The notes under the pieces were generated by a model that saw only the letters and a program-made list of their open reading frames with translations, searched no databases and had not been told where the DNA came from. A stretch of 64,000 bases of DNA from Phoronis australis (Eukaryota > Animalia > Phoronida), in contig NMRA01000826.1 in NCBI GenBank assembly GCA_002633005.1, positions 66,978 through 130,977 of the forward strand. Reading direction: 5' to 3'. The stretch's first letter is position 1; each line of letters opens with the position of its first letter. Both the position numbers and the translations under genes were made by a program. Shown piece by piece: positions 21,012-63,955 of this stretch.

Positions 21012-22114
21012 AACAAGAGCAACGCAGAGCGTTGAAATGCGCCCACAATTGCACCGCCAACGGTATCCTTCTAGGGTTGTTTATTGGTACCATAAAGTGG
21101 CCAGTAGAGGGCATATATGTAGTATGTTGTACTTAGCAAAATGGAAAGGCATGGTCATTGTCTCCTCAATAGGCTAGGGGCAAAATGTGAGTAATCTTCA
21201 TAATACAAGCACATCCTATACACCAGTTGCTTAAAGCACCACAGAAACATAGAATTAAAAACAAATTTACCAACATACAAGATTAGCACAGCATTAGAAT
21301 GCCAGAAACAAATTTCTACTTGGAACTTTTCCTTCACAGTCACGAAGTAACACAAAGTATACACCTGAAGACCTATGAAAATACAGAGGTCAATGTAAAA
21401 TNNNNNNNNNNNNNNNNNNNNNNNNNNNNNNNNNNNNNNNNNNNNNNNNNNNNNNNNNNNNNNNNNNNNNNNNNNNNNNNNNNNNNNNNNNNNNNNNNNN
21501 NNNNNNNNNNNNNNNNNNNNNNNNNNNNNNNNNNNNNNNNNNNNNNNNNNNNNNNNNNNNNNNNNNNNNNNNNNNNNNNNNNNNNNNNNNNNNNNNNNNN
21601 NNNNNNNNNNNNNNNNNNNNNNNNNNNNNNNNNNNNNNNNNNNNNNNNNNNNNNNNNNNNNNNNNNNNNNNNNNNNNNNNNNNNNNNNNNNNNNNNNNNN
21701 NNNNNNNNNNNNNNNNNNNNNNNNNNNNNNNNNNNNNNNNNNNNNNNNNNNNNNNNNNNNNNNNNNNNNNNNNNNNNNNNNNNNNNNNNNNNNNNNNNNN
21801 NNNNNNNGTCATCTCACTAATAGGTGCCAACATACCAACTTTCATGAAAATTCGTTCAGGACTTTTGAAGATACAAAGGTAAGCGTAAAAAACTAAAATT
21901 GCCACTAGGGGGCACACCGGTAGTCGGATCCGTCCGAAAGTTCGCACATGCAGTCCCATTCATGAATGGAACATATGTGCCAAATTTCATGAACGTATGT
22001 CAAAGGGTTTTGGAGATAGAGCAGCGGACGCCGACCGGACGGACGGACAAACGGACGGACGGACAGAGATGACGGCATAATGCGTCCACATATAAATATG
22101 TGGGCGCATAAAAA
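21012..22114 (-). mobile_element. DINE-1/HINE-like non-autonomous Helentron element (spans the N gap)
   Basis: on minus strand: T-run, ATGCGCCCA subTIR with partial inverted repeat, (GTCC)n, body, TGGGCGCAT subTIR, CAACGC-TCT-GCGTTG stem-loop, CTTGTT. Confidence 0.8.
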
Positions 22115-22776
22115 GGCACCGGAAAGACTTTGGCTTAGTGACTGCTGTTTACATTAATTGACTTCTAATTAGATTTCCACCTCAATCCAGAGGTCTCTAG
22201 TCTACATACAATAGAGAGGTCTCTACAGCTCTACATACAATAGAGAAGTTCAATAAGCAGTGCAAACCAGTTTAGATTTTCAAAAATACTTTGAGGGTAA
22301 CAGACTGTAACTGCAGAAAATCTTGTGCATGGGTCAAGTGTCGGACTGACTTGAGATTTGTGCCAGAAACTCTCCTGATTTGAATGATGTTGACTGTTCA
22401 AGTTAGCCTTGGTATGACATGTACAACTCCATGTAATATATTCCTAAACTTCAGACATAAACATCCAGCTGACTCGCCATCGCCCAATGCGTTGTTAAAT
22501 GCATGTCCTCGGAAAATGTTGATTAACTTATAAACATCCAATTGGCTGCCATCTTCCAGTGTGTCTCTTTAAAAGCAGGTCCTCAATCAATGTTCATAAA
22601 TGTATCATCCCAAGATAGTAAAATGGTATCACCAATTGCAATGTGACGGTAGGATTTTGAAGCATTACCTTGAACACTTGTGTGGGCTCATGTCAAGAGA
22701 CAGCACTGCACTGTAAAGCACTGTAAGCAGTATGGATGTCCACAGCACAATAATAAAGAGTGTGAGGTTAACTTAT

Positions 22777-22942
22777 TCAGCCCGGCTGATGATTCTGTCT
22801 TAGTTTTCTCCATGAATCAGATTGTGACCTTCTCTCGTTATCGTCTAACCACTGGAGTAGCGCAGATACAATGAAAGTTTCACAGTTCAACATAAGGCCT
22901 ACTGCGTAACTGGCACATGCGAAGTCTGCATCTTCTGTTCCA
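22777..22942 (-). CDS. FANCF: FANCF-like probable last coding exon
   Basis: ttttgtag acceptor, phase 2; GTEDADFACASYAVGLMLNCETFIVSALLQWLDDNERRSQSDSWRKLRQNHQPG*; terminal SW..L resembles FANCF SIWTDL. Confidence 0.45.
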
Positions 22943-24299
22943 CTACAAAATATGTAAAGATTTAATATGGCTGCCACTAGGAACCACTAACACTAATTAC
23001 GACACACATGCCCACAAAATCCTTTGCACACAATTTCAAAACATTGCACCTGCTCAACTTAGGATGTTACGGTTTGCCAAGAAAGATGGACCATTGGAAA
23101 CTTGTCCCATTTCACAGTACCTTGTACTGCATCAATAGATTTGTGCAAAAACAACGGTTGTCGAGAAGCTTGTTCATAAGGAATGCAAATTTAAGGTCCT
23201 GTATACAGCTCAGCAATTTCAGCATTAGCGATGATTTCAGAAAACTGCTTTAAAATATAACTTCCAAAGTTATAAACCAGAATCACTTAGTCAATAAATT
23301 GTAATGTTGACTGCTTCTATGAAAACTTGTTACGTACCATTCCCCTGGATTGTTAAAGCCAAGAAATTTCCAACATCAGGATCTCGTCTAGTATCACATT
23401 CGATAATCATTAAACTTAACAAACAAGCTTAATGCTGTGGCAGAGTCAGAGCTTACAGTCACACAAAGGAATTGGCAGGTGAAAGTTACAATCTAATTTC
23501 GCTAAAACTCCACTGTTTTTGTCCATCCGATGTTTTTGGTGATAGTATTTTATACAGAACGCATCTTCATCACGACATTTGTTGAACGTCGTTTGGAACT
23601 AGGGTTAGTGACAGGAGCACTGTTTACAACATGATTGGTGGATTACACGATCTTATCAGACGAACGCAGACAATGAGAGAGTTGGACTACATGTAAACAT
23701 TGGTTTGACAACTTTCTTCCGTTGCTTTCGCTTTTGAACTCGTCTGAGAACGACACTTGTGTATCCTGACCAGCTCATCAGTGAAATCGGGATACTCATC
23801 CCACAGCACGGGGGCATAACGATGTAACATTTTATTCTTTCACTTTTTTTACTTCATCAAGAGTCAAATCCGCTACATATGTATCACTGATGTCAACTTT
23901 ACCACTGCACCACCAGCATGTGCCCCCAACTAAAAGTCTTAATCCCTTCTTAGTATTTGATCATGATTCTGACATCACTTTTGTTTTTAAATAACCCGTA
24001 AAATATAAAGTACTAAGTTAATACTACATCAAGTCCCACCTTCCCAATGTTGCACTGCACCACCAGTACTTAGTGAAAGTGAATAATTGCATAACATCGA
24101 GCAATAAATTGGTGATTTTTAAAATTGTTAAGCTTCTGAAATTGAATTTCTCCAAAAAGTTAGGTTAGGATTATTTCTACCAGAAGATTTTTTGTGTACT
24201 TAATACGTTTAGTCACTTAGATATCATGATTGGATGAGGCTGGGGGTTAGGGAAGCCCCAACTACAATACACACTCTTACAATAATAGTTATATGAAAA

Positions 24300-25040
24300 T
24301 TATTACAACAAAAAGAAGAACATATTAACAAAGCAATAAAAATAAAATAATAAAATTGGGCGTAATATAAAATTAATATACTATCACTATGAATAGGGGT
24401 GAAAGGAAAGGGGAAAGGGGAGGACTTTCAACACTCATTCACACTCATACTCAAACTTGAAGAAAAGTAACTGTACAATAACTTCAAAAAACAATATACT
24501 AACTTTCTAAAATAGTTATTCAATGCAAAAAAACTGTTCCATTATTCAGAGAGATGCCTGCAAAAACCCTCCACAGATCTACAGTTTTGTCCGAGACATT
24601 GATGGCAGTACTATTTACTGTTTCAAACAGTTTGAATTTAAACATATTAAAACAAGGTGGAGGCCCCTTGGAGACCCCTGTCTTGATGGAGTATACAATG
24701 AGATATAGTATCTGGGAGTAATATGATTATAGTCCTAGATAGTATTGAGCATGGGTGTACAGGGTGTTGAATACTTCACATTCTCCTGAAAAGTTAGGTT
24801 GGGATCACTTTTGCCTGAAGAAATGATAGCACACAAGAGCAACACTGAACATTAATAAGCACCCACTGTTTAGATTGCATAAACGGAGATATAAAAGAAG
24901 ATCATTATTTAAAATCTTTCCACTATAGGCTAAGGCCATAGCCCCAGTCACATCATCCTGTGACCAAGTCAGGGAAGAAACTTCAATTTTTGTGCGGCTA
25001 GATATATCTTCAAGCATTTGATATTCAAAACGTCCCCCCA
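24300..25040 (-). mobile_element. Possible decayed Tx1/L1 3' fragment
   Basis: weak zf-RVT-like remnant (KILNNDLLLYLRL..GCLL..YHFF) followed by a pyrimidine-rich tail. Confidence 0.25.
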
Positions 25041-25084
25041 ATTAAAGTAACACATTTTTTCCACGCTCTCCTAATATAACATCA

Positions 25085-25688
25085 AACAAGAGGTGGCAGT
25101 GTGCTACATCCTTAGCCAATCACAAGAAATGATGAAAAAATTGTTAATCAGGTGGCCAGTTGCAAAAATAAAATTTGTATAAATCTTGTGGTGATTGACA
25201 ACTCTACCAATTTCGCAGAGAATATGACTTGACAGCTTTTTTGAAAAACATGCCAATTTTCACAATCATCCTTTGAGCGGTTTGGTTGATAGAGGGGTAG
25301 ACGCACAAAAACAGAGTCGAAAACACTAAAAATGGCCACTAGGTGGCGCAAACTATGTGGAATCCATCTGAAAACAGGAGGATAGCGTCATCTCACTAAT
25401 AAGTGCCAACATACCAAATTTCATGAAAATCCGTTCAGGACTTTTGAAGATACAAAGGCAAGCGTAAAAAACTAAAATTGCCACTAGGAGGCACACCGCT
25501 AGTTGGATCCGTCCGAAAGTTCACACATGCCGTCCCATTCATGAATGGAACATATGTGCCTAATTTCATGAATGTATGTCAAAGGGTTTTGGAGATAGAG
25601 CAGCGGACACCGGACGCCGCCCGGACGGACGGATGGACGGAGATGACGGCATAATGTGTCCACATATAAATATGTGGGCGCATAAAAA
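25085..25688 (-). mobile_element. HINE-like element, variant end
   Basis: same terminal hairpin and GTCC tract; starts AACAAGAG on the + strand. Confidence 0.75.
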
Positions 25689-25950: not shown

Positions 25951-26170
25951 CTTCTGAGTATACTTGCGAAATGTGATATTGCGAAATCTTGCTTTTAAGG
26001 AAGAAATTAGGCTAATGGAACACACTCGTGTTTGTGACTAACTGGCTGTAAATAACTACTTTAATGGTTTTATAGAGCCTCAGTTGACATCCATACTGAA
26101 TAACTTCATGTGAGTTCACAAATCCAATAAATTGCTCCTTAGGCTAGTGTTGAATACTGGGTGTACTTAC

Positions 26171-26296
26171 CTTGAGTCAATTATCCTTGCCAAATACCTC
26201 AAGTAGGCTTGGAAAAATGAATGGTACTTCGTTGACATGGCAGTAAGAATTTGGCCATCAATCTTCAGCAGGACTTGGGTATTGCCGTGGTCAGAG
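26171..26296 (-). CDS. FANCF: FANCF-like exon
   Basis: SDHGNTQVLLKIDGQILTAMSTKYHSFFQAYLRYLARIIDS, compare LPAGLLTLVTSRHPALSPVYLGLL; phase 2-2; donor gtaagt. Confidence 0.62.
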
Positions 26297-28157
26297 CTGT
26301 CAAGGTAAACTTTAACTTAACACACTTTTGACATTTCATTTGGGACTTAACTGTGTTCTCAAAGAAACAGTACTGTAATGACTTGATGAAGACAAAACTG
26401 TATAACGTAAACTAAAATACTGTCCGCAGATTTCTGTCGTTTACCTTTTTCTAAAAGCGATCTTACAGAAAAATCAGTTTTCAGGGGAAAATGGTCAACT
26501 GACTACAACTCTGGGTATTACTTTGTCCTGATAATTCCAGCAATCATCAAAGATACATAAGGTACATGGTGACCAAAAACTTTATGTTTTTGCCTCTTAA
26601 AATTATTCTTTCAGGAACCTCTACCAAACTTTACATATAAAAACTGCTATGAGTGAATGACATTTCAACCAAATTACAAAAATAAAGAAGGTTCTTTACC
26701 ATCTAACTGCCTCTTCTGTTCACCATTGTGATGCAAGCACATGCATGGTCAGGTAAACTCAAAGAACAGTCTTGGTCTACCGCACCTCCCAATTATGAGG
26801 TACAGAGACCTTAGTACAGCATGGGCAGCTAAACCAAAACATGGCATTATTGGAATCATTAGCTCACTTGATCAAGCTCAATTCTGAGCGTCATGTTGTT
26901 GAGCTTGAGAGGTTTTAATGGGAAATGGGTGTGTTAGAGATTAGCAGTGGTACCAAGATGGGTCCATCCCAATACAGCTTATGTAACACTTAAATTTAGG
27001 CTGTAATGTGTGTACTATGTTTAGGTCTTTACCGATGGCAGCAGCTCTCGACTGAGTCAGTCCGTGCCTAAAGGCCAGATGTGTAAAACATAATGCATCT
27101 ATGTGAGTAATGCATAACTCTTAGGTTTACCTGTTGTATCTGAAAGATAATCTTTCTCAGGTGTGTAAAGCACTCATGTTGCTTTGCGTATACACACATA
27201 TACCTTTGTATGTTTACCCAAGTTGGGTGCGTTGCCAGTGCGACTTGAGCTACAGCCAAGTAGTCTGTAACTAGACATACATGAAGAGTCGGTTACCACT
27301 GAAGTATGACGCTGTAAACTTATTTTCAGTTTTATAAGTGTTTTATTATCAGTTTTGTATAAATAATTATATTGGTTTGTCGAGTTTTATAAGTGTTCTA
27401 TTATCAGTTTTGTATAAATAATTATATTGGTTTGTCGCTTTGGCTCATCTCTGTGTGCACTTGTTCCATGCTCCCAATTTTACAACAGTATCAAAATGTT
27501 GATATTACAGATTTGTGAGGTAAGTCATGACCTGAAGGCATGACATTCAACGGACAGCACTCTCAACAGATTCAAACTTATTTTATGCTCACTTACAAGC
27601 TCACTTTAAATACTGTGTTACTTTATACAAATAACCCAAGCAGTAGCTTAAACAGGCTATAAAATGGTAACAAATAGAGATTAATTTCCAACTTTTTTTT
27701 GTAAAATAATAGAAATGCCATCCATTCCTAGTGTGGCTGGACAATGGTACAAAGATCTCTTGCCGGTCATGCGTGTAAAGCAACATTTATTATGAAAAAT
27801 ATGGCTGTCACTATTGAAAAAGAAAATATTCCCAATCCTTAATTATGGTGCTGAGGAGATTTCATCAGGGTAAAGTATGTAGAAGCTGTTCAAATAAGTT
27901 TTGTAAGTTCTTACTAAAACTAAGAATACGTCAAATGTAACAGCAAGGGCAGGGCGGGGATTGGGAAGATGCAGGATGCATTTTCAAAGACTGCAAAGTC
28001 ATTAAATACTGGTTAAAATTGACACCTGAAGCCAAAAGATAAGGCTAGAAGTATGACTAAGTGTTACTAATTTTAATACGAGATGGGTCACCCAGTAAAT
28101 AGTTTCATAGGTTGAAAGCAACATTAGGCAAGCTTATGCCCATCCAGACATGACCAA

Positions 28158-30930: not shown

Positions 30931-32979
30931 AACAAGAGCAACGCAGAGCGTTGAAATGCGCCCACGAATGCATCGCTAACGATGTTCTTCTAGGGGTGTT
31001 TACTTCGAACATAAAAATAGCAACCAGATGGCGCAAAATGTCAATTCCATCTAAGAACTTGCATGTATCATCAAAACTATTTACCAAATTTCATAAAAAT
31101 CCGTAAAGGAACTTCTGAGAAAACAGGAAAATGAAACAAGAGCAACGCAAAGCGTTGAAATGCGCCCACAATTGCACCGCATACGGTATCCTTTTAGGGT
31201 TGTTTATTGGTACCATAAAGTGGCCAGTAGAGGGCATATATGTAGTATGTTGTACTTAGCAAAATGGAAAGGTATGGTCATTGTCTCCTCAATAGGCTAG
31301 GGGAAAAATGTGAGTAATCTTCATAATACAAGCACATCCTATACACCAGTTGCTTAAAGCACCACAGAAACATAGAATTAAAAACAAATTTACCAACATA
31401 CGAGATTAGCACAGCACTAGAATGCCAGAAACAAATTTCTACTTGGAACTTTTCCTTCATAGTCACGAAGTAACACAAAGTATACACCTGAAGACCTATG
31501 AAAATACAGAGGTCAATGTAAAATACTAAAATTGCCACTAGAGGCANAACTTCATGAACGTATGTCAGAGGGTTTTGGAGATAGAGTAGTGGACGCCGGA
31601 CGCCGCCCGGACGGACGGACGTACGGACGGACGGACAGAGATGACGGCATAATGCGTCCACATATAAATATGTGGGCGCATAAAAATGAAAATGCCACTA
31701 TATAAGCCCAAAAAACATAACTGCCACTATGAGGCGCCAAGGTAGATAACGTCATCGGAAAATCATCATCAGACTTCCTCTTCACATTTTAATAGGAATA
31801 TAAATGCCAATTTCCACAACCATCCTTAGAGTGGTTTGGTTGACAGAGGGGCAGACATCAAATTACAAGACTCGAAAACAGTAAAAATGGCCACAAGGTG
31901 GCGCAAAATGTCTCCAATTTTACCAAAAAGCAGATGATAACGTCACCTCACTAATAGATGCCTAACTGCCAAATTTTCTGAAAATCGATTGACGACCCAT
32001 TAAGATACAGACAAACGTTAAAAACTACAATTGCCACTAGGGGGCACACGAGTAGCCCGATCCTTCCAAAAGTTGTCATCCTCTGTTGTCACATTCATAT
32101 AAATACACCAGCAAAATTCAATAAAGATCCTACAGAGCGTTTAGGAGATACAGCAATGGGCGCAAAAACAAACAAAACTGCCACTAGGACGCGCCATAGT
32201 ATTCGAAATCTTCGAAAATCATCGTTAGCCACCGTCTTCACATTAAGAACATATGGTTGATAGAATGGCGGATACCAAAAACCAGACTCAAAAACAGTAA
32301 AAATGGCCACTAGGTGGCGCAAAGTACCACAAATCCGTCCGAAAATGGGAGGATGGCATCATTTCACTAATAGATGTCTAACTGCCTTATTTTATGAAAA
32401 TCCATTAAGGACCTCCAAATCTACACTGGAGGTAAGCGTAAAAAAATTAAAATCGCCACTAGTATTCGCAGAGGTCCGAAATTCGTTGTCATCGGTCTTC
32501 AGCTTAATGGGAAAACATCTGCCAAAGCTCATTAACATCCTGTGAGGGGTTTAGGAGATGCAGTCTGGGCGCAAAAAACAAACAAAACAATCACCAGGAG
32601 GCGCTAAAGTTGTTGACGTCTTCTGAAAATCATCGTCAGTCGCCCTATTCACAGTAACAACATATATCAATGCCAATTTTAAAAATCATACATCGGTTTT
32701 GTAGATAGAACAGCGGACACCAAAAAACAGATACGTAAACAGTAAAAATAGCCACTAGGAAGCGCAAAGTATCCCGAATCCGTCCGAAAACCGTAGTCGA
32801 AGAGGTCCAAAACTCGCCATCGTCCGTCGTGAGCTTCATAGGAACACATCTGCCAAATCTCATCAAGATCCTGGGATGGGTTTAGGAGATACAGCTGCGG
32901 ATGGCGGATGACCGGATGCCCAGACAGAGATGACGATAATATGTGACCACATATAAATAATTATGTGGACGCATAAAAA
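30931..32979 (-). mobile_element. HINE-like element with a second HINE (31135-31686) inserted inside
   Basis: two AACAAGAGCAACGC starts and two terminal hairpins in nested order. Confidence 0.8.
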
Positions 32980-35900
32980 TCAGCAGGTAACACCCATGTT
33001 TGAAGTATTAAATACTGAATATTTTTTACAAACAATGGAGGTACCAGCCATAAAAATTACCTCTTGAAACCAATTCCACAAGTTAAGTTTTGTTGGTTTT
33101 CATTCTTAACGATTGATATTTTAATTTAAAATAAAAATCTCAGAGAATTGCTTCTCTTTGCCACAGACCATAAAATGAGTATACCAGTTTTGAGCAAATG
33201 TCCCCACTTATAGAGAAAAATGTTCAAGACTCCTAAATGTTGAAAAGGAAGTAACCAATAAAGATATTTGGTTGAAGTTGTCCAAAACATCTCGCACGTT
33301 TGGCACATAAAAGATGTGAATAAAGTCCTCATCTCAAAGGGCATTCTAGTTCAAAAAAATTATTATGAAACATGGCATAATGTTCTTATTTTCTGTTATC
33401 AAATTAAAAGCTTTTTTAGCACAACTTTGTACATCGGACGAGATCGGAAAATCATCGACTATTCCTATCTATTTCCGTGACCTGAGTTCCTGTGTGTCAG
33501 TTCAGGAACGATTCTTAAATGACGGTCATATTGTCCTTGAAAACGTATTGACATCACCGTGAGCGTAAATGTATTGTTACTTTGTTTGGTTGCTTTTGAT
33601 TCCCATTTTGGTTCTTTTTATACAAACTTGATTATTTAAAGTCCAAATTTTACTTGTTCTTTGTATATGACGAATGGTATTTAATGCATAATCATAAGTT
33701 TGTGAAGTACCGTCACAAAGTCTCCCATAGTCAACACTCGGCTACTGAGGTCAGCCCTGACTCATCGCGAGGGTAGGTCAAATTTCAACAACAGTACCCG
33801 TTTAGGTAGTATATCAGAGGAAAAAAGTTTCTGAGTCAACAAATGTCTTATCATTAAATTGATGCAAAGTACCAGCCTGAAGTTAGCAATTGCCGTGTCA
33901 CGGTGACTACCCAAACGTGTGAGCGCAGTGTGTAATTGGCAGCAAATCGGCACCAGTTTTACTGGCTGTTTAAAAATGTAAAATAAAAAAGAACATCCAC
34001 ATACGGCGATGTTTCGACAATCAAAAACAAGTTTTATCTCAAAACTGACAGTGAGCTTTACATCTGTGCTTGATTTTGCTGTCAGGACACAGAAACCAGC
34101 GAAGTAATTCGTCGCGACTCTTCGCCGGGAAAATAATCACTTGATAAATTGGCTTTGGTTTTCAATCATCACTGACAATATATTTCCAAACCTCACACAA
34201 AAAACTTACAATATATACCTCTGTTGTCTAAATATAAAAATTCCGCGCCGCAAACCGGGGCGGGGGAGGAGTGTAGAGGATTTTCGTCAATGAGCTGAAT
34301 GTCAGCGATGGGAAAATATTGGTGTTAGGAGCATGACACAGTATTTTTTAATCTCTTTGTCACAGGAATTTCACTCATTCAGAGCCGGGTAGCTAATTTT
34401 CATCTTGCTACATGGAGCAGACGTCCGACCGCGTACCATGGCAGCGTTTTCCCGTTCAGTGACTTTACCAGACGTAGGGGGTTCTGAGCATGCGATAAAA
34501 TCTAGCTTCTTTGTTGACTGCCAAGCACACTCTTTTATCTGTTATGACAAGTAGGCCAATTATCTACCATGAGGCTTATTACAGACCACGTGTGAACACA
34601 GTCAAACTCAGAGTGACTTGGTGTATTCGGAAAGAATAGATTGTCGTACCTTCATTTGCAGTAAGGCCATTTTGGCGATTCAAAAACTAAACATGATCCC
34701 AATTTGATGAAGACTTCAGAAATACTACTGGTTTATGTTCAAGTATGTTATAACTCAACTTTTTGTTTTAACAGCACAGCCCAGTCAGGGTAGATAGGAA
34801 CTTATTGGAGATTAGAGCAATTATCGAACAACAGAGAGCTGGCTCTCCAACCATAAATGCCAGAATGAAGTTAATCAGTCGTGTCAGATATTGGCTTCTG
34901 GGGGTAAACTTCCCAACTTGTTGTTTGGCTATAGAATCGAACAAGTTGGGAGCAACGAAAAAACGCCGTAATGTGGCAGGCCAGGCAGTCCGGCTTTGTC
35001 GGCTAGCAGCGTATACGAATGTTTCTGCCCAAGTGGGAATTATTCCTTTTACTTTAAACTCGTTAATACTTACAGTACCATTTGGAACCATGGCAAGTTT
35101 TCCACCTGCAGTTATTTCGCCTCCAAATTGTATTCTCTTGGCACTCAGCCGCCCGGCCGTAGCCGCCAAGTCGCGTCTAAATTCATTTTCCATATTCACG
35201 CAAGTTTAACTGTAAGGATATTCTAACTGTATAACAATTTTATTCAATATTTGATGTTGCGTGTTCGTTGTTCTGTTTATACTGTTTGTTTACCAGAGAC
35301 TGTTAAACCCAGCAAAACACGCTTATCGTAGCCCGCCATAGGCCCGTTATTATTCAATCGTTGCCGCAAAACTGTTACTAGTCCTTAATTTTATACAAGA
35401 GTCGGAAACTATTTTGGTATGTACACGGCATTCATGATTTGAACCATTTATTCCGATAAAACACTGGGACGGCATGCCTTCATCTTTTGTCAGTGCGAGT
35501 GGTCTGATCGGTCAGCACCAGGTCATTGGCTGCAGATCCAAGCTCGGCAAAATAATTTCTGCCGAAATTTATTTTCAATTGACACATTTTGTTAACATTT
35601 TCAATACAAATTTTCCCTATTTTGGTTTTAGAAAAGTTGAGGTCCGCTATCGATTATTTTATCCCCGTTTGGAGGCTGGTAACGGACTCTGCTCCAGTCG
35701 CACAGCTGGCGTATCCTTAGCCTGGGTTCCTGAATGAATTGTACTTCTGGCTTCGCAGTTAGTTCAAAATGGCAGTGTGATCTTCCAATCGGAATTATGA
35801 GTGATGCGTTTATTTAAACTTTCTTCGACTACGGATTGTGTATTGGTTACGGGATAAGTACTGAATGGTTGCTAAGAATGTCCTCGAACCACTTAATAAG

Positions 35901-36355: not shown

Positions 36356-38071
36356 AACAAGAGCAATGCGGAGCATTGAAATGCACCCACGAATGCATTG
36401 CAAATGGTGTGCTTTTAGGGTTGCTTATTTGTGTCATAAAATGGCAGCTAGATGGTGCAAAACATACAATCTGTCCGAAAGCGGGAACATGTCATTGCTT
36501 CTTTAATAGAAAGCTAAACTCCAAATTTCATAGAAATCGGTCATGGAACTTCAGAGAAACAAAGGAAATCAGAATAAAATGAAATTGCCACTAAGGGGGC
36601 ACAGTGTTCATTGGATCCGCCTGAAAGTTGTCATTGTCTGTTGTTAGCTTCATATAAATAAACTTACAAAATTTAATAAAGATCCTGCAGTGGGTTTAGT
36701 AGAGGCAGCTATGGGCGCAAAACAAAACAAAACTACCACGAGGAAGTGCAAAAATAGTCAAAGTTGTCATCATCAACCGTCCTCTTCACACTGAGAACAT
36801 ACACGCCAATTTTCAAAACCATCCTCAGAATGATTCGGTTTATAGAGAGGTAGATGCCAAAAAACAGATTCAAAAAGAGCAAAAATCACCACTAGGTGGT
36901 GCAAAGTACCTTGATTCCATCCGAAAACAGGAGGATAGCGTCATCTCACCAATATATGCCCGTATTCAAAATTTTATGAAAATCTGTTGAGGACCTTTGA
37001 AGGAAAACGTAAAACTAAAATTGCCAACAGGGGGCATACGAGTAGTCAGATCCATCCCAAAATCATCATCGTCCGTTGTCAACATCATGTAAACACACTT
37101 CTTAAATTTAGTAGTAAAGATCCTGCATATGGTTTAGTAGATACAGCCATGGGCGCCACAGTAGTCGAAGTCATCGGAAAGTCATTGTCAGCAATACACT
37201 TCATAGTAAAAACATACACGCCAAATAACAAGACTTGAAAACAGTAAAAAAGGCTACGAGGTGGTGCAAACTAGGTCAAATCCATCTGAAAACGGAAAGA
37301 TAGCGTCACCTCACTAACAGAAACCTGTATGCCACATTTTATGAAATTACGTTGAGGACCTTTGAAGATACAGACTGAAAACGTTAAAAAAAAAATTACC
37401 ACCAGGTGGCACACCAGTTGTCCGATCTGTTCGAAACTCGTTGTCGTCTATTGTCAACATCATATAAATGCACTTACTAAGTTTAGTAAAGATGCTACAA
37501 ATGGTTTAGGAGATATAGCCATAAGCGCAAAACAACAAAACTGCCACTTGGAGGGGCCACAGTAGTCGAAGTTGACAGAAAATCATCGTCAACCATCCTC
37601 TTCATAGTAAGGACATACATGCCAATTTTCACAATCATACTTAGAGCGATTTGGTTGATAGAGGGGTGGACGTCAAAAAACAGACTCGAAAAAATGGCCA
37701 CTAGGTGGAGCAAACCAAGTCGAATCCATCCGAAAGCGGGATGATGCTGTCGTCTTACTAATAGATGCCTAATTACCAAATTTTATGAAAATACGTTGAG
37801 GACCTTTGAAGATACAGAGGTAAACATAAAAAACTAAAATTGCCACTAGGGGGCATACCGGTAGTCGGATCCGTTCGAAAGTTCGCTCATGCTGTCCCAT
37901 CAATGAAAGGAACACAATGTGCAAAATTTCATGAACATACGTCAAACCATTTTGAAGATAGAGCAACGGACACTGGACGCCGGACGGACGCTGCCCGGAT
38001 GGATGCAGATGACAGCATAATGCGCCCACATATAAATATGTGGGCGCATTTTATACGTGGGCGCATAAAAA
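36356..38071 (-). mobile_element. HINE-like element with internal ~145-bp tandem array
   Basis: both termini present; repeated GCCACTAG units. Confidence 0.82.
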
Positions 38072-38226
38072 TACTGCATCAGTAATGAGGGTATCTTGAA
38101 AAAGCTACCAACATTTTACGCAATTACATACTCAGACAACTTACATCAATGTGTTTTTCCTTCACCCTCTTGGCACGAGGTTCATTCGCCTGTAAAAGTT
38201 TCATAATTTTGGTTACAGTGAAGTTA

Positions 38227-41113: not shown

Positions 41114-41117
41114 TCAT

Positions 41118-41236: not shown

Positions 41237-41249
41237 TAAGTATCCATAC

Positions 41250-44097: not shown

Positions 44098-44589
44098 CTA
44101 AAACAATACCATCACTATTTGTGGGCAATGAACGCTTGTAACCTCCACCATTATAAATTCTTCCAAACTATTTAGTGTTAGCTAGTTGACACTGCAGAAA
44201 TAAAAGAAATTTATTTTGCCAGAGAAAAGTCAAAATTTTATAATTAAATTTAGATTTTCAAAAGCTATCTTATTCACTGTCAGCTGCAGCACTACCAAAA
44301 CACTGAAAACAACACATCTTTACTTCTTTACCATGATCGCGGACTTAAATACAAAGTCCACGCTAAAATTGACACAGCTGCTAATCAGGCTGTGTGAGAA
44401 CATTTTGGGCGAACATGCGTGGTATTGCACAATTTCAAAATTGCATATTAATGCATTTTAGTTGCATAGCAGTACTAACTTGTATTGAATGAAAAACACA
44501 ATTGTTCCAAAATGAGGGAAAAAATAAATTATCTCGGCCTTCCAAATTTTGCAAGCAAATTTGTTGGACTAGACTTATCAAAATGTCAC

Positions 44590-45086
44590 CTTTTCTATGC
44601 GGAGAATTTTTGCCAAGTTGGTCCTCAATTCCGATTTCAATTTCATTTCCATTCGTTCAGGAGATGAGTGCAGCTTGACAGCTTCTTTTCGGAAAAGTAT
44701 GACATAATCTTCAAAAGTCATTGGTTTTGATACAGTCGAAATAACATTGCTATCATTTCCCAGTGTCAAACACTGTTCTGTAGTGAGGCCCCAATATATG
44801 TTGATGGGCCATTCCTTGAAGATACTGTTCTCCTTGGCCAGATCCTTAAGTGCCAAGTGGGTATGGTTACCCCCTATAATTTGGACGGGTATTGAAGAAC
44901 TGATGATTTCTTCGTAAGAAGGTTTTTTTGAGACGTCAACGAGCCCCAACAGAGCTGTTGTTCTGGTTTCCGGACGCATCAAGAGAGACTCTTTCAAAGC
45001 TTTAACATGCTTTGCGTCAGCAGTACGGCACATGATGCCATTGTCTGGCTGTCTCATTTGAAGCACTGGGATCATGAGATAGTTAC
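44590..45086 (-). CDS. Nested gene, ParB/Sulfiredoxin-like domain exon
   Basis: 497-nt open exon: RTADAKHVKALKESL...VQIIGGNHTHLALKDL...INIYWGLTTEQCLTLGNDSN; follows the ParB N-terminal pattern (R, helix, strand, IIxGxH..A, V, helix ending N). Confidence 0.8.
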
Positions 45087-47530
45087 CTATAACAAAACAA
45101 TGTTAGACAATCACGTTACACTCAGTAAGCACTTCCGGGTATTGTTCATTTCAAGCAAATGACAAATCTTAATGTGCAACAAGCATTAAACATAAAAGTA
45201 TCAGAATTTCTACCCTAACAATAATTAGTTAACAAAAGTGACAGTTGCAGAACCGTTCCGCATGCAGAACCATTCTGCATGGGGAGCGATTTCCTAAACA
45301 GAATGGTTTTGAGGGATATTCGTTTTGCCTAATCAACTTAAAATGCATTCCATTCCCATGCCACTTGAAAGTATCAATGTGACATGGCTGTTGCGGAACC
45401 ATGCGGAATCTGAGTGACAAGATGAACAACACATCTATAAGAGGAAACACATTTCATACAGGTCATAACTGTGATGGCGTATCTAGCACATAACTATCCT
45501 AAGAAAAATTCTGTAATTAGTCAATAAGGCTCCGAGACAAACAGACAACCGCATCAAAACTTAGTGTGGCCCTAGCTCTGGGCTCATGTAGGAATTGCTT
45601 AAACTTTCGCCATAAAACTTGCTTAGCTATTTTTGTCCGCCTTCAAAAACCTTGAAAGTCTGTCTCCTAAACCTGTGATCTGGCATTTAGCTGTCAAGCA
45701 TAACATCCCGTCTGATAGGTCACAAAGTGTGCACTGTAAACTTGAAGTTATTCTAAACTTGGAGCACTCTAGAGACACATTGTTGTGCAGTTCTATCAGT
45801 CTGCGTACTACTCATGATGATGAGTTTTACCAGGACCAGTTGTTTTTGTAATCGCTTCTACTTAATCATTCCCACCTGAAAAAATTCAGTTTTGTCACCC
45901 AGACATTTTCTACTCTGACATCTTGCCCTGTGCTTGACATGGGCATCCAGTCATATTAAGTTATTAACCTCCAAAATAATCCCCCAACTTAATGGCTACA
46001 ATATTATGTCTGTGTAGGTTCTGGACTGTACTACAAGATAAATTGCCTGATCAGCATGTCTATGAGTGATGTCTATGTGGAATCAGCTTCATCCATCTGG
46101 TTTTGTTTATGCTCTGGTTTCAACTCACCATGTAGCAGATTGAAGGTGCCTGATGAAGTGGTTGTTTGCTAGAGTTGTTCACTGGTACTGACTTAAAATT
46201 GATAAACAGTGACTGCTATTTTAAGAATCTGTGCAGTTTAAGTTTCATGTTCCTGGGTCAGATAAGAGGTGTAGTAGTAATGGTTTGTTCAACTACAGCA
46301 CTTACATGATGAAAGCAGTCAGACAGATTGTGGCTGACAACTTGGTTACTTTGTTTTATATATCTGAGGTTACTGTAACTCAGATCTCATGACTGTTTAT
46401 AGTGTTGTCAGCTAATTCAATATTTATGTTCTAAAACTGGCTTGAAATGTTTATCTCAAACATGCTTTATCAATTAGTTGTCAAGGTTACAAACTTGAAA
46501 GCAGCCTTTTCAAACTGGTTGTAACTCCAGAACTAAGAACAGCTGGATATATAGGTAAGACTGAACAATGAACTTAATGTTGAAATTTGCTATATAATGA
46601 TTAGATTACATTTAACAAGGAATAATTAATTTATAAGTGTTCAGTCACATTAATTTTGTAGTGGAAATATCTTTCAATTCTGCGCAAAATTAATTACTGG
46701 TATGTTTTATTGCCATTACCAAAAGTACATACCCCCCCAACACAGTTGACCATTCCCTTACAGTAAAAGAGCAGATTTCAAGGGAATGACAGGCATGAAA
46801 TGGAACATTCACTAGCTATTTATAGCACTCAGAATCCAAGTGAGAAATGTCGTTTTGCAGTTCGACTATTAGAAGTGAGTGTTGAGTCGACACGAGAGTA
46901 GGTTTCCCGAAATTAATTCATTTTGTCAAGTTGTGAAAGCATTCGCCACTTTAACATATGTACTGCACTCTAACATTGCCAGTGGCGCTCACAATTGGCC
47001 AATGGCAAGCTGGCGAGTGGCTAGTGCAAGCCCAGGAAGGTGACAGAGTTCACACAATATTCCTTAGTTGTAGTCTACACCTTCATGCAGCAACATGAGA
47101 AGCTGTAGAAATGGCCAGGATTCAACCCTTTCATCGTTTTTTGAGAGTGAGGCCAACGTGTAAGGAATATTCCCTCAACTCTCACACGACATGAGGAGTT
47201 GTCACGAAGCGCAGGAAATATTCTCTGCTTGAAGATATTAAGCATAGTATTTGGAGAACTACCTGCTTGCAGTGATGGAATGTCCCGTCACAAAGAATAA
47301 TATTATGCATAAAAATCCTCAATTTTGCCTTATTTCTTTATCAAATTTCTATAATCTGCAGTCACACCCAAAAAGGTGCTGGAACAGATATTCCTTTTTT
47401 GAAATAGAAACAGTTGCCGCCGCCAGGCTACAGATACAAAAACTGTTGTTTTAAAGTGACATACACATTGTTTCATAATGTGACTTTATCATGCTACTCA
47501 TTCTGAGCAATGTACTCTACACTTACATAC

Positions 47531-49621: not shown

Positions 49622-50237
49622 AACAAGAGCAATGCAGAGCATTGAAATGTGCTCACAAATGCAACGCAAACAGAGTGATTCTAGGGTTGTTGTTCTTGTA
49701 TCATAAAAATGGCAACTGGAATGCGCAAAAAAGTCCATTCCATCCGAAAACGAGAACATGAACATACCCACAGGCGTCCTCAGCTTTTGATCGTCCACAA
49801 TACACTATATAATACTACAAGGTATGACACTCCCGACTAGAAATTCCACGGGTGCTTCACTTCAGCCGTCCATAGCAAACACAAAACTCAATAAATTTAC
49901 ACAAAACATAGGTTCAACAAACCATGAGGAATTGTTCTTTCTCCCAACACCATTTACAGTGTCCTGCTTCACCCAGTTCGCAAGAAATTTGCGGTCAAAG
50001 CACAAAATCTTCCCAAAAAGCCCGTCCGGAGAAACTCCTTTGTAAATGGAAGTTAAACGACGATAGGGAATCATCCAATGAGTTACAGATGAACAGCAGT
50101 TGCCAATTTGTCACGGAAAGTTAAGAAATCGTGAAAGGTTTAGAAATAGAGCAGCAGATGCCGGACGGAGGGACAGTCAGAAGGACGGACGGAGATGACG
50201 GCATAATGCATCCACATATAAATATGTGGGCGCAAAA
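49622..50237 (-). mobile_element. HINE-like element with an unrelated interior
   Basis: both termini present; ~49760-50125 does not match the array. Confidence 0.7.
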
Positions 50238-50691
50238 CAATTCACTTGTTTGGGATGGCGAAAAATTAATTATTTTGCTCAAAGTTGGAGATCGTACCAA
50301 ATTTTAGAAATATGCAAAATTGGTCATCCAAAATTCAAGAATTATGAAACGAATTTAGCTATGGCAGCTATTTTAAATGATTTCATCTCAGAGTTGATAC
50401 AAAATGCAGTGTCCAATATTTCAGAAATATGATGAATGCTTTAATTACCAACAACCTCGTATTATTTTGGCTTGAATTTCAGTGTCCTGAACTTTAGAGA
50501 CTGTCCCAAACTGGAAAACTTTTGTAGCATATTTTCAGTTGACACATTCCCAAAGTTGTTCTCTATCAATTGTGGTTTGTCTTGTGCAGGAAACGTGCCG
50601 ACTAAAGCCACGTCTGTCGTGAAAATGGCAAATTTATTTGATCACTCATTTCAGCTATCAAAAAGCATAATGGCAATTCAGTTGCACTTAC

Positions 50692-52152: not shown

Positions 52153-52562
52153 AAACAAGAGCAACGCAGAGCGTTGAAATGTGCCCATGAATATAACAGC
52201 ATCGCAAACGCTGTGCTTCTAGGGGCGTTTATTTGTATCATAAAAATTGCCACTAGATGGCGTAAAATACGTCGAAATCATCCAAAAACGGGAACATCTC
52301 AGCATTTACCAAATTTCACAAACATACGTCAGAACAAAGGAAAATGGGAAAAACGTAATTGCCACTAGGGGGCACAGCATTCATCAGATTCATATGAAAG
52401 TCGTGTCCATTGTCAACTTCATATGAATACAATTGCTAAGGTTGCCTTCGCCTTTAAGAACATTATTGCCAATTCTCAAAATCATTCTCAGAATGCTTTG
52501 ATTGATACAGAGGTGGACAGCAAAAAAAGAGACTTTGAAACAGGAAAAAATGGCCACTACGT
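52153..52562 (-). mobile_element. Truncated HINE-like element
   Basis: AACAAGAGCAACGCAGAGCGTTGAAATG end plus three array units. Confidence 0.72.
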
Positions 52563-53529
52563 GCATTTTGCGTCTAAAATTTTGACCTTTTAAAAACGTC
52601 TGATGAGTCAACAGTTAAGTAATTGGATTATAAGCATCAAACACACTTTTTACAGACTTTGCAATAAAGAATTCCACTAAAAGGGCTTATAAAGCTCTGG
52701 AAATGGTCATTCAGTGCAAAGGTTGTCTAATTTTCTTACATTCTTCAAGGAATTTTCAATTTCAGCACATATGCCAATCAAATACACTACTTTACTAAGC
52801 AATCAGACCATTCAATCAGATAAAATATGTCAAAGATCATGAAGTGTAAATTTTAAACTATAGACACTTCAGATTTACCCATGTGATTGATGCATGAACT
52901 GGAGTTTTAATTCCAAAGCTTCAGGTCATTTGGTGCAACCATGGAGTCAGAGAACATAGCTGGACGGAGATCACATGATTATAGACCACTCAATGTTGAA
53001 TTACTGATGAGTTACTGAATTATGGAGGACCCAGCCTACCATCTGTTCAATTATAACTAAATTCATAAAGTTCTTTTTCTATATTTTCCTCAGATACAAT
53101 TTAACTCATTTATTCCTGAAATAGGAAAAGAATGAAATGCTATTTTAGACCAACTTGAAATTTCAGTCACAAAAATCACACACGAATAAATCAAATTATA
53201 CTCACCCTCACAAAACCAACAAGTCTGTCAGTTTCAACAGATTTTATATGTGGACACAAATGGGATGAAGGAGTATCGATATAAATATTGTTGTTCTCCA
53301 GAGTAAACCACCAACTTGATGTAATGTAACAAGCACTCATGTCTCATGTGCTGCGGAGTGTATCAACTAACTGCTGCAATGACAACTGCAACTACAAGAC
53401 ATGTGGGAGCTTTACCAGCACTGGCCACTCCTTCTACATAAATACATGGATTGCCTGTTTACACAGCGTGATGGCCATTAGGGCATTCCTGTGAACTCAA
53501 CCTCATCTATCGCTTTTGTTTATGCTTAC

Positions 53530-59477: not shown

Positions 59478-59883
59478 CTAAAAAAATGATTGTATAAATC
59501 AAACTTTGCTTCCCTTTAGCAAAAAAGAATACTCAGCTTACACTGACCACTGCCAGTTAGGAGTTTATGGTGGGTCTCTTCTGGTAAAAAATTAGCCTAA
59601 GGTGAAAACCTGGGTAAAAACATAGCTAACTTTGAACAAAAATTGGCAACAAAGTTTTAGACAATGAAGTGTTGTATTTGTCATAAGTTTGACAAAGCCA
59701 GAACAACTTTGATGAGGTTCATCAACCTTTTCAAACTGCTTTCTGTATCTGAAGCTTTAAAAACCCCAGGCTAGTGTCCACTCAGAGATGTATTAAAAGA
59801 ACTTTACCGGGAGTGTCTGCTTAATGGTGTATTAAGGGAACTTAACTAGAAGAGTTTACACTGTGCGGTTACCAAAACAAATG

Positions 59884-61549
59884 ACAAGAGCAACACAGAG
59901 CATTGAAATGCGCCCATGAATGCACCGCAAATGGTGTGCTTCTAGGGGTGTTTATTTGTATCATAAAAATGGCCACTAGATGGCGCAAACTACGCCAAAT
60001 CTATCCAACAACGAGAACATGCCGTCGTTTATTAATAGAAAGCTATTTATTGAATTTCATAAAAAATACGTAAATAAACTTCAAAGAAATAGAGGTACAT
60101 GGGAAAAAAGAAATTGCCACAAGGGGGCACAGCATTCGTCAAATATGTCGGAAAGTCGTCATCGTCCGTTGTCAACTTCATAGGAATACATTTGCAAAAT
60201 TTAATTAAACATCCTGCAGAGTGTTTAGGAGATACAGCTATGGGCACAAAAAAACCAAACTACCACTAGGAGACGCCACAGTATTCGAAGTCATCGGAAA
60301 ATCGTCAGCCCTCCTCTTCACATTAAGAACATACATGCCAATTTCCACAATCATCCTTCGAGTTGTTTGGTTGACAGAGGGGCAGATGCCGAAAAACAAA
60401 CACAAAAATAGTAAAAATGGCCACTAGGTGGCGCAAAATACCTCGAATTCAACCCAAAACCAGAGAATAGCATCACCTCACTAATAGACGCTTATTTGCT
60501 AAATTTCATGAAAAGCCGTCGAGAACCTTTGAAACCTAAGAAACAAAAAATTGCCACTAAGGGACACACTGATAACCCAATCCGTTCGAAACCTGAAGTA
60601 CTCTGCTTTCAACTTCATATAAATACATCAGCAAAATTCAATAAACATCTGTAGACCTTTTAGGAGATACAGCCATGGGCGCAAAAACAAACAAAACTGC
60701 CACTAGGAGGTGCCATAGTAGTCGAAGTCATCGGAAAATCATCATCAGCTGCCCTCTTCACAGTAAGAACATATATGCCAATTTTCATGTTGGTTGATAG
60801 AAGGGCAGATGCTGAAAACAGACTCGAAAACAGTAAAAATGGCCACTAGGTGACGCAAAGTACCTCATATCTGTCCAAAAACATGAGCATAGCATCATCT
60901 CACTAATAGATGCCTAGCTGCCAAATTTTATGAAAATTCGTTGAGGATCTCCAAAGATACAGAAACCTAAACGTAAAAAATTAAAATTGCCACTAGGAGG
61001 CACACCGGTTGTCAAAGAGGTCCGAAATTGGTCACCATCTGTTGTCAGCTTTATGGGAGCACATCTGCCAAATCTCATCAAGATCCTGTGAGGGCTTTAG
61101 GAGATACAGCCATGGGCGCAAAAACAAACAAAACTGCCACCACGAAGGCGCCACAGTAGTTAAAGTTGTCGGAAAATCATCGTCAGCCGCTCTCTTCACA
61201 ATAAAACATAAATTATATTGCAATTTTCAAAATCATCCCTAGAGAGGTTTAGTTCATAAAAGTGCGGATGCCAATGCATAACTGTCAAATTTTATGAAAA
61301 TCCGTTGAGGACTTCTGAAGATACAGAGGTAAGCGTAAAAACTAAAATTGCCACTAGGGGGCACACCTGGAGTTGCGGAGGTCATCGTCATCTGTCATCA
61401 GCTTCATACAAACATGTCTGCCAAATCTCATCAAGATCCTGTAAAGGGTTTAGGAGATACAGCTGCGGACGCCAGACACTGGACCACGGACGGCCACCTA
61501 GGGATGACAGCAATGTGCGGCCACATATAAATATGTGGGCGCATAAAAA
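59884..61549 (-). mobile_element. HINE-like element with internal array
   Basis: both termini; about ten GCCAC(T)AG units in a three-unit higher-order pattern. Confidence 0.82.
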
Positions 61550-61931: not shown

Positions 61932-62593
61932 CTGAAATCAAAAGAGTCTCTATTAAATTTAATGTGCATTACATATCTAATAACAGAGAAAAAACCCTTG
62001 TGAATTGGAGAGTGTTTTTCAGATAAAAGTACTGGAGTTGACACATATGCTACGGAAGCACTTTGAGCCACAGTAAATCACATCTGGTCTTAAAAATATC
62101 AACTATCTTCACAGAAGTTTTTTTATTCCAATTGTATCCTTTGTTAGAAATGAAACTGCCCACACTGCCATGTCAACTGAAACTAAACCAGTGACACCAG
62201 TAATTTATGGATTTGGTATAAAACAGATAATAACCAAACATTTCCCAAATCTACTCTTGTGTGAAGTCACAATAACTGTCTACAAATCAGACCTAGACTA
62301 CATTATTGATTACGTGAGTTACTGTCGAATCATAGCTTGCTCTTGATTGCCTCAGTTTTGTAGCTCAAAGCCAGAGGTCATCAAGTGTAAATCTGGATTA
62401 GATGCTCAACTCCATAACCCACAATATACTTAACACAACCGTACACTTATTTTGATTTTATATCAAAGTAAAACGAAAAATGTTGATATTGAATACACAG
62501 ATTAGACCCGAAACCCAGGTCACCAGAAGACAGATGGAAGATTCGACATTAGACTCCAGTACATGTAGGTTATGTACACAGATAACACAATAC

Positions 62594-62680
62594 CTCTATA
62601 AAGCTGTCCAAATGTCCTTGGTAAGCGTTCAAAAGCTCGTGTAACAGATCATCACTTAAGTATGGATTCTGGACGAGATT
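62594..62680 (-). CDS. FANCF: FANCF-like protein, internal exon; gene starts beyond the window end
   Basis: NLVQNPYLSDDLLHELLNAYQGHLDSFIE, resembling human FANCF RLLENRALGDAARYHLVQQL; AG/GT, phase 0-0. Confidence 0.6.
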
Positions 62681-62723
62681 CTGTAGATACAGAAAAAATG
62701 TACACTAGCACTGTCAAACATCG

Positions 62724-63955
62724 AAGAGCAACGTAGTGTTTGATATGCTCCCATCACACGCATCACAAATTGCATGGAAATAAGATATAATCAGTTTTTA
62801 ACATGTTGCCAAAGTAATTGGATCCTTTTGGAAATCAAGATCAGTTGGCACTAACAGAACAAATAATGGTATAAATAGCTAATAAGTAGACACATGACAT
62901 TGTGTCACTAAGGTGCCGCCCAATAGTGAGATCCATCAAGAAAAGTAATGGAAAATGCTAAAGTAGACAGAGTACTGATTTGCCACTAGGGTGCACTGAA
63001 ATAGTCATATCCATCAAGAAGTAATGGAAAATACTGAAGTGCACACAATGACAATTTGCCACTAGGGTGCACCACAGTAGTCAGTTACAACAAGAAGAAC
63101 TAATCATAAATACAAAAGCACACACAATGACAAATTGTCAGTTGGATGCATCAAAGAACTTGGTAGATCATGAGGTACGCGCAAATAAAAACTAAAATTG
63201 CCATTAGGGGGCGCTACAGCAGAACTGTCCGAAAATTCATGTCGGATAGGGAAGCAGACACAAAACAAAACAAAACATGAAAATAATAAAATTATGCAAA
63301 AAAGGTCAAATCCATCTGAAACTGGGTGTAACCTATCCTTTAAAAAAACTTAATGGTAAATTTCTTGAACATCTATCATGATTGAACTTGATAGGTGACA
63401 AGTGTATGGAAAGACCTAAATTGCCACAAGCAGATGCAAAAGCAGCAGAACTATGTAGACATCAACGTAAGTCGTGCTCTCCTGAAAAACAAAAACCAAA
63501 TTTTGTAAAAGTTCCATCAAGGACTTAAGTAGATAGAGGCAGAGGCATAAAGCCACTAGGGGACGTTACTATAGCCAGACCTGTTCAAAAATCAATTTCA
63601 GAATGTGCTCTCCTGATTTGAAACACTCCAGCCAAATTATATATTAATAATTCTTCCAGAGGTTGAGTGACTAGAGAAGTGGATTAAAGGGGGCACAAAA
63701 TATGTTGAATCCATAAGGATGTCATTTTCAGTTCAATTTGTCAAATTTCACAAAATTCCATCGATGAACTTGGTGGATACTGGAGCTAACGTGAAAATTA
63801 AATTGCCTCTAGGGGGCACAGCTGTAGTAAAGTATATGCTAATTGTCATTATTATCTGTTGCCACCTCACTAGGAACACATCTACAAAATTTCATGGAGA
63901 TTATGCAAGACACTCAGAGATGACAACAAAATGTATCTGGCCACCCATGTGGGTG
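62724..63955 (-). mobile_element. Old, degenerate HINE-like copy followed by (GT)n to the window end
   Basis: AAGAGCAACG...GATATGCTCCCA end and periodic AAATTGCCACTAGGG units. Confidence 0.55.

Follow-up and report, generated by a model that had tools for sequence, protein, structure and literature searches.

The window, by which we mean the whole 64,000-nucleotide stretch analysed, contains a calnexin gene (best named matches to molluscs, an annelid, amphioxus and an insect, ~75%, indicative of a bilaterian) and nine copies of a HINE (non-autonomous Helentron), which together carry 46 motif-bearing units, on one strand throughout. The copy designated E1 lies ~1.2 kb beyond the calnexin 3' end, and most arrays sit among presumed minus-strand exons, not between genes. 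Another gene had been called FANCF-like in an earlier sequence-only reading, an identity that we reject: the 223 frames scanned, with 37 of the 187 listed short frames outside the scan, gave no match to FANCF at E≤0.01, and the single FANCF match stood at E=0.23. Two relics occupy calnexin intron sequence on the plus strand, opposite in orientation to the arrays, namely a distant HINE relic (4718..5200) in which the scores at the three motif positions are close to zero (1.1, -3.8 and -1.1 bits) and a relic 3' end of the HINE family (384..463; 71% over 80 bp, E 5e-5).

All nine copies are on the minus strand. E1 (21012..22114), a young copy, contains a 406-N assembly gap and has plus-strand motifs at 21100 and 21901. 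The array of E2 (24832..25688) starts at ~25250, with motifs at 25335 and 25480; its 3' end at 24832 is decayed (9/35 mismatches) and its assignment uncertain. E3a (30931..32980) is an older copy with an A-B-C array and motifs at 31020 and 31723-32751 (8 units), and inside an A-run of this copy lies a young one, E3b (31135..31686; motifs at 31223 and, beside an N, 31534), which differs from E1 at 9 of 390 bases. Ten motif-bearing units are present in E4 (36356..38072), where a deletion near 37160 removed the motif of one C unit, and ten in E7 (59883..61549), whose final A unit is partly deleted. The short copy E5 (49622..50240) retains a single decayed motif at 49712 and an interior without a unit match, and E6 (52154..52580) is truncated, without a 5' end, with motifs at 52249, 52361 and, in broken form, 52553. 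E8 (62720..63955) is a diverged relative with seven motif positions, a 76-bp sub-repeat and motif spacings of 76-223 bp across 62.7-64.0 kb.

As far as they are described in PMC4067079 and PMC7492417, HINE/DINE-1 elements and the oyster Cg_HINE share with the window family a 5' subTIR with an inverted repeat, a GTCY microsatellite, a 3' subTIR with a palindrome, T-rich ends and central repeats of 140-180 bp. Compared with Cg_HINE as described there, only the window family has a higher-order repeat of three units with a CTCF core motif in its central units. In E1, the 5' module (22036..22114, minus strand) comprises a T-run, a subTIR with an inverted repeat (hairpin) and a (GTCC)n microsatellite, and the 3' module (21012..21046, minus strand) a subTIR, a 6-bp stem-loop and a T-rich end. 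The subTIR pairs are exact in E1 (21037/22101) and E7 and inexact in E3a, E4 and E5. The hairpin adjoining the 5' subTIR has a z of -3.9 in E1 and -3.1 in E7; the 3' stem-loop is weak in E1 (z -1.4) and decayed in E7. Microsatellite runs near the 5' end are perfect in E1, E2 and E3b and decayed in E3a, E4, E5 and E7. As regards insertion into T-rich sequence without duplication of the target, 6/6 copies had a T-run at the 5' end and 5/6 had at least TT at the 3' end, the empty site of E3b being judged only by eye from sister copies. Central tandem repeats are present as well, and no N-free frame in the elements exceeds ~115 aa, with no transposase frame by frame length. The subTIRs, microsatellite and central repeats support assignment of the family to the non-autonomous Helentrons, as had been proposed from the sequence.

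The array is a three-unit A-B-C higher-order repeat with units ~145 bp apart, and the recurrence originally noted at that distance held across 24 neighbouring intervals (112-167 bp, with a mean of 144.6 and a median of 145), intervals spanning deletions and all those of E8 being left out. The repeating motifs are GCCACTAGGTGGCGC in A, GCCACTAGGGGGCAC in B and GCCACTAGGAGGCGC in C. The three-unit order had been read correctly, but not the set of motifs on which it is built, since the ...AGATGGCGC form is restricted to the first unit of an element. A nucleosome occupies 147 bp, and the spacing had been considered meaningful on that scale. We reject such a role because the ~125 bp between sites is less than 147 bp and motif-free oyster HINE repeats have periods of 138-181 bp, making the period an ordinary one for HINEs; other HINEs bear the motif every 38 bp.

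Inspection of the positions at which CTCF-like motifs had been claimed confirmed them, with exact motifs at 25333, 32304, 59970 and 60418, a position (61350) 2 bp inside TTGCCACTAGGGGGCAC, a variant form, TGGCCACAAGGTGGCGC, at 31888, and decayed motifs in E8 at 62982, 63058, 63200 and 63553. A degenerate 15-mer with ≤2 mismatches matched 32 times on the plus strand and once on the minus strand, compared with a mean of 0.5 and a maximum of 2 in 30 dinucleotide shuffles, both strands together. Some vertebrate CTCF sites also carry an upstream (U) motif, which binding does not require. No such motif was found with A, B, C or the outside locus L001, for which the best scores at gaps of 3-19 were negative, and a two-part site of core plus U motif was therefore rejected. 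When we scanned the window with a CTCF matrix from zebrafish, not the host's own (ChIP-seq, PMC7182764 Data S1, first 15 columns), 18 matches reached p≤1e-5 against 1.3 expected, all of them within elements and on the plus strand, in keeping with the co-orientation that had been noted. Column-shuffled matrices reached the real score in 1/2000 cases for A, 3/2000 for B and 0/2000 for C, supporting the conclusion that the likeness to the CTCF core exceeds background and depends on column order, although a T at motif position 6 is rare (0.001) in this matrix. The description of "dozens" of sites fits the window but no single element, which has at most 10 units and at most 5 strong sites.

Different unit types disagree at 28% of motif positions but at 48% of those elsewhere in the unit, and among same-type classes pairwise motif mismatch stays at 16-18% while that of the rest climbs from 26% to 33%. 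In a comparison of units that were chosen by their motif, two with deleted motifs being left out, mismatches amounted to 34/352 in the motif versus 568/3128 in the rest (19/225 versus 222/957 for non-CpG G/C), and 65 of 20,000 random window triples were as low. None of 10 unit-class differences falls on the five near-invariant CTCF positions (simulated p 0.007). In E8, 19/105 motif bases depart from the family consensus, compared with 34-55% of flanking bases, in keeping with the observation that the motif is the most recognisable remnant in the decayed copy. In type C the motif (16/120) is hardly better conserved than the remainder of the unit (172/1071); mismatch rate showed no fall as information content rose (rho +0.41, p 0.13); and the best-conserved window is shifted so as to take in an upstream A-tract outside the CTCF motif. 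Within old copies, 18/45 copy-level changes hit near-invariant positions, CpG loss is seen at motif position 13, and changes are slightly milder than random (p 0.085). Whole-element alignments, in which units are partly mis-registered, gave motif mismatches of 30/119, 33/135 and 26/137 versus 27%, 20% and 24% for the rest, so that the excess conservation expected at motif positions is seen between unit types but not here. These figures give no sign of site upkeep at the insertion locus. Since near-invariant positions decay in old copies and whole elements show no excess, the lineage that transposes, and not the inserted copies, seems to be what is under constraint.

In a metagenome scan with a pattern that requires the motif, CTCF-consensus arrays of 147-bp and 38-bp units turned up with three more types of HINE end; in all three the motif points at the element 5' end, so that, with the window family included, four types of HINE end share a motif polarity towards the 5' hairpin. 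L001 and L017 have a different subTIR and 147-bp units with the motif GCCACCAGGGGGCGC, mismatches being 6/164 in the motif versus 144/1427 in the rest; outside the motif they are barely alike to the window family (z about 2). L001 has the full CTCF consensus (25.7 bits). L010 and L005/L011 combine HINE ends with 38-bp motif arrays of the same polarity as in the window. The same tandem-motif pattern gave one match in 596 Gb of prokaryote genomes and none in viral contigs. For the oyster HINE arrays, 3.35 million characters of the PMC7492417 supplement (entries to 400 characters) contained a single occurrence of AGGGGGCGC and a single one of AGGTGGCGC. As these arrays and the calnexin-intron relic are without the motif, Helentrons do not need it.

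We think it somewhat probable, judging from the sequence comparisons, that the CTCF core match in the HINE central units is a genuine CTCF site, maintained because selection acts on the lineage as it transposes and not because the host preserves individual insertions. Donor copies bound by CTCF would stay open and unmethylated, or the silencing of neighbours would be limited, giving site-bearing copies a better chance of transposing or surviving; the final site is ~200-230 bp away from the 5' end, the presumed starting point of rolling-circle transposition. Once inserted, the sites would drift, with CpG loss in GGCGC, so that the host would gain oriented CTCF sites only for a time and as a side effect. 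More tentatively, CTCF may be a host co-factor for a widespread Helentron group, several invertebrate HINE families having built central repeats from 5'-pointing CTCF sites at which bound CTCF licenses or protects transposition; insertions might then act as directional multi-site insulators and make HINEs one of the main sources of CTCF sites and lineage-specific genome folding in these animals.

Neutral amplification, by which one ancestral site was tandemly duplicated and its conservation is an appearance created by motif-based unit choice, inter-unit conversion and a stable neighbouring A-tract, would account for the whole-element alignments, for the copy-level changes on invariant positions, for the inclusion of the A-tract in the best-conserved window and for oyster HINEs that manage without the motif. 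We consider it unlikely, however, given that class-level changes avoid the invariant positions, that the E8 motif persists beside strongly diverged flanks and that motif and polarity recur in units of 147 bp and 38 bp whose elements have different termini. It is less likely again that the CTCF likeness is incidental and the binder is YY1 (at AAAATGGC), some other zinc-finger protein or the enzyme of the Helentron itself. Type A does contain AAAATGGC, a word that we take to resemble the YY1 consensus, a second box, CCAAATTT..GAAA, is conserved as well as the motif in type A and recurs in L001, and conservation reaches 6 bp upstream; yet the YY1-like word is missing from B, C and L001, the match needs the CTCF column order, and L001 carries the full consensus.

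We regard as very unlikely the proposal that the inserted arrays are insulators partitioning calnexin, the FANCF-like gene and a nested gene. The 18 strong sites still present, the position of E1 near calnexin, the slightly mild copy-level changes and the loops formed by mammalian TE-derived CTCF sites (reported in PMC9406493) are consistent with it, whereas the decay of sites in old copies and the lack of whole-element excess leave it unsupported. Moreover, all arrays across 21-64 kb face one way, leaving no convergent pair, the majority lie among presumed exons, and annelid CTCF motifs are, as described in PMC7854359, mostly single and at promoters.

HINE central repeats are usually viewed as inert seeds of satellite DNA; were they arrays of selected host-factor sites, the repeats would have a job, and their fixed polarity would allow a direct test. 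The role of CTCF outside vertebrates is treated as an open question in PMC10658182. A high-copy element scattering oriented arrays would supply many natural insertions for measuring binding and insulation, and would at the same time be a confounder of CTCF motif enrichment when invertebrates are studied by Hi-C and ATAC. Among rolling-circle elements that spread dense host-factor sites, as the window family does with candidate sites, Caenorhabditis Helitrons carry clustered heat-shock elements (PMC6927752) and Drosophila miranda DINE-1-like elements gave MSL sites (as cited in PMC4067079); it has been suggested in PMC6927752 that such sites first served the element. Here, by comparison, the motif is CTCF-like and the element, known from its sequence, of Helentron type. 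Mobile elements that multiply CTCF core motifs likewise include zebrafish TDR13B and other non-autonomous DNA transposons (PMC7182764, whose family table names no Helitron), lamprey hAT-Tip100 (PMC5504073) and rodent B2 SINEs (as cited in PMC5504073). The vertebrate sites described in these sources are ChIP-supported, whereas those in the window are sequence matches, up to 10 in tandem per element and without the U motif. The mouse DXPas34 minisatellite, possibly derived from a mobile element, is likewise built of tandem units that each contain a CTCF site (PMC3149622), but as described it is a single locus with 30-34-bp units, while the window arrays are the central part of a mobile family with dispersed copies. 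CTCF sites on TEs and factor arrays on Helitrons are each known; their combination, CTCF arrays in Helentrons, was not found in open-licence PMC and bioRxiv literature.

Two further ideas were discarded. Poly(A) signals are too weakly skewed (AATAAA, 11 vs. 6) to explain the orientation bias. The interior of the young subfamily does not read as a decayed array, as 173/300 and 40/300 shuffles scored equally well; the likeness of this subfamily to the rest of the family ends where the first motif ends.

Nine copies of HINE, a non-autonomous Helentron, were present in the window (E1, E2, E3a, E3b, E4, E5, E6, E7 and the diverged E8), E3b being nested inside E3a. Read on the minus strand, the element opens on a T-run, next to which a subterminal repeat folds back to pair with an inverted copy of itself (z -3.9 and -3.1); inward from this 5' fold lie a (GTCC)n tract and then the central array. 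On the 3' side of the array come the other member of the subterminal repeat pair, a short stem-loop and a terminus rich in T. Passages of PMC4067079 and PMC7492417 describe this arrangement for HINEs. The CTCF-like motif is directed toward the element 5' end; 88-95 bp separate the 3' end from the first site, and 199-230 bp separate the last site from the 5' end. E3b (31135-31686) is a young copy in the A-run of an older one, about 200 bp from the latter's 3' end, and a single N at 31547 may conceal collapsed units within it. Internal deletions at 37160 and 61270 removed units elsewhere; the former, in E4, fuses two GGCGC words and eliminates a C-type motif.

The motif or a variant of it was found at all ten positions that the sequence-only reading had named. 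A degenerate 15-mer with up to two mismatches occurred 32 times on the + strand and once on the - strand, compared to 0.5 in shuffled sequence. Scanning with the first 15 columns of a zebrafish (not host) CTCF ChIP-seq matrix from PMC7182764 Data S1 returned 18 matches at p<=1e-5 where 1.3 were expected, all on the + strand and every one within elements, so that both the match above background and the proposed co-orientation held. Column-shuffled matrices equalled the real score only 1, 3 and 0 times per 2000 for the three central repeat types A, B and C of the A-B-C higher-order repeat, indicating that the match does not merely reflect G+C content. A relaxed scan gave 46 motif-bearing units, with a maximum of 10 in any one element, and the predicted spacing of about 145 bp was recovered (mean 144.6 bp over the 24 adjacent intervals used). 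We conclude that CTCF-like arrays are a real feature of these HINE copies. The nucleosome-scale significance attached to the spacing fared less well: one nucleosome per gap is unsupported, since about 125 bp is left between sites, and the period is not special, since motif-free oyster repeats span the same period range and 38-bp motif arrays exist.

We extracted 36 units, a set from which two units with a deleted motif are absent, and scored 24 internal ones (8 per type), omitting first, terminal, hybrid and E6 units. Mismatch to the type majority was 34/352 within the motif compared with 568/3128 outside it, and just 65 of 20000 random window triples matched the motif's low mismatch. When 30 units were aligned in all 435 pairings, same-type pairs kept a flat motif mismatch of 16-18% while that of the remainder climbed from 26% to 33%; for pairs of different type the figures were 28% in the motif vs. 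48% in the remainder. When majorities of five classes were compared (A, B, C, the distinct first unit of the array and its young-subfamily version), all 10 differences lay outside the five columns that are near-invariant (p 0.007 by simulation, generous like the other constraint p-values because pairs are non-independent and units were chosen by motif). At the copy level, 18 of 45 changes fell on these columns (32 units, three with indels omitted), the changes being milder than random at p 0.085, and position 13, within a CpG, was among the motif positions most often changed. The left terminus differed at 15 of 245 positions, close to the per-copy motif rate. The simplest reading is that the motif is constrained on transposing lineages and then drifts after insertion.

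Element anatomy, the motif match, lineage-level conservation, copy-level decay and common polarity are thus established. CTCF phases nucleosomes and maintains its own sites unmethylated. We somewhat favor the view that the motif is kept on the transposing lineage through putative CTCF binding to donor copies, which could leave the 5' hairpin accessible to the rolling-circle enzyme; alternatively, bound CTCF might lessen the insertion's harm. Neutral amplification of the motif array appears unlikely given that class-level differences avoid the near-invariant columns, even though the C type alone showed little excess conservation (16/120 in the motif vs. 172/1071) and whole-element alignments showed no excess motif conservation (24-25% and 19% vs. 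20-27%), the latter partly because units were mis-registered. That a different protein binds the conserved block is improbable in view of the matrix match, although a second box in type A, CCAAATTT..GAAA, is conserved equally with the motif.

Host insulation by inserted arrays is, in our estimate, about as improbable. The suggestion that arrays partition the calnexin, FANCF-like and nested genes was not supported, since E1 alone plausibly sits between genes, sites decay at the copy level and whole-element alignments lack an excess. The HINE copies in 21-64 kb share one orientation and two relics in calnexin have the opposite one, so there is no convergent array pair. These relics (384-463 and 4718-5200) lie in a + strand gene and the nine copies (21012-63955) among presumed minus-strand exons. 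Element orientation thus seems to track the host gene, which would make the T-rich element strand the putative sense strand; per strand, the bias in T-runs is only ~56-59%.

The calnexin gene is intron-rich, on the + strand, with its stop near 18390 (Pfam). The best named relatives of a calnexin exon are from bivalves, an annelid, gastropods, amphioxus and an insect (~75% identity), pointing to a bilaterian, probably marine invertebrate, host. Two adjacent calnexin frames (13200-13499 and 13524-13820) each resemble a transmembrane exon, and relatives split between matching the first and the second; they are possibly mutually exclusive exons. A minus-strand frame at 26170-26316 weakly matched Pfam FANCF (E 0.23, below cut-off), and further exon-like minus-strand frames extend to 62 kb. 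One at 44.6-45.1 kb resembles nameless, partly ParB-like clusters; the multi-exon frames at 41217-45102 (-) contain coiled-coil regions along with a GGNH segment that is ParB-like, and their nearest atlas clusters are nameless. CpG is depleted across most of the window, which suggests methylation.

Requiring two motifs 128-158 bp apart, we found 21 metagenome loci (about 14 distinct sequences) and, across prokaryote genomes totalling 596 Gb, a single one; a similar tandem-motif pattern gave no viral loci. L001, a complete HINE, differs from the window family in its subterminal repeat; it has a 5' hairpin (z -7.6), and its central array comprises seven 147-bp units carrying GCCACCAGGGGGCGC. Between L001 and L017, which form one family, differences numbered 6/164 in the motif vs. 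144/1427 elsewhere. Outside the motif, the L001 unit resembles the window family only weakly (z 2.0-2.2), and the second (CCAA) box lies at equal distance in both. In L010, also a complete HINE, a third type of subterminal repeat accompanies a 38-bp motif array. A 38-bp array 75% similar to that of L010 occurs in L005/L011, where a microsatellite and then a hairpin end of a fourth type come after it; L007 carries an array of the L005/L011 type, with no end within the contig. Similar arrays beneath two different HINE ends suggest that central repeats may be exchanged between HINE families. As in the window, the motif was directed at the 5' end in all three outside loci with a visible 5' end, a polarity shared over four end types that could be chance (1 in 8).

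Six of the 21 metagenome loci carry a LINE-associated array. In L003 (691-1082), four perfect or near-perfect CTCF motifs ~119-130 bp apart start immediately 3' of the stop codon that closes a zf-RVT-containing LINE frame, making this a putative CTCF array in a retrotransposon 3' UTR; this array recurs in L002, L004, L013 and L019 (which opens with a poly(T) tract), and L009 is related. By eye, no HINE ends were seen around the motifs of the remaining nine loci (L021 excluded). L014 (2176-2853) contains an ~18-copy 38-bp tandem array of GCCACTAGATGGCGC with no kinship to the L010/L011 unit and no termini that we recognized.

Published accounts, as far as the relevant passages go, describe CTCF sites borne by transposable elements in zebrafish (PMC7182764), lamprey (PMC5504073) and mammals (PMC9406493), a CTCF minisatellite in mouse (PMC3149622) and Helitron-borne factor-site clusters in Caenorhabditis (PMC6927752) and D. 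miranda (as cited in PMC4067079). Targeted open-licence PMC and bioRxiv searches returned no literature on CTCF arrays in Helentrons; what appears new here is the CTCF-motif array within a Helentron-type element, transposon-borne CTCF sites and Helitron factor clusters being already known.

The motif is probably not general to HINEs, judging from two comparisons that weigh against it: oyster Cg_HINE arrays contain CCACTAG 54 times and AGGGGGCGC once among the ~3.4 million characters listed, and a distant HINE relic in a calnexin intron has near-zero scores at its motif positions. HINE central repeats in general may nevertheless be arrays of host-factor sites. Among the rows listed, oyster HINE repeats hold other factor-like words, TGACCTTGACC in CL6 and ACAGGAAGT in CL3, which we take to resemble nuclear-receptor and ETS sites.
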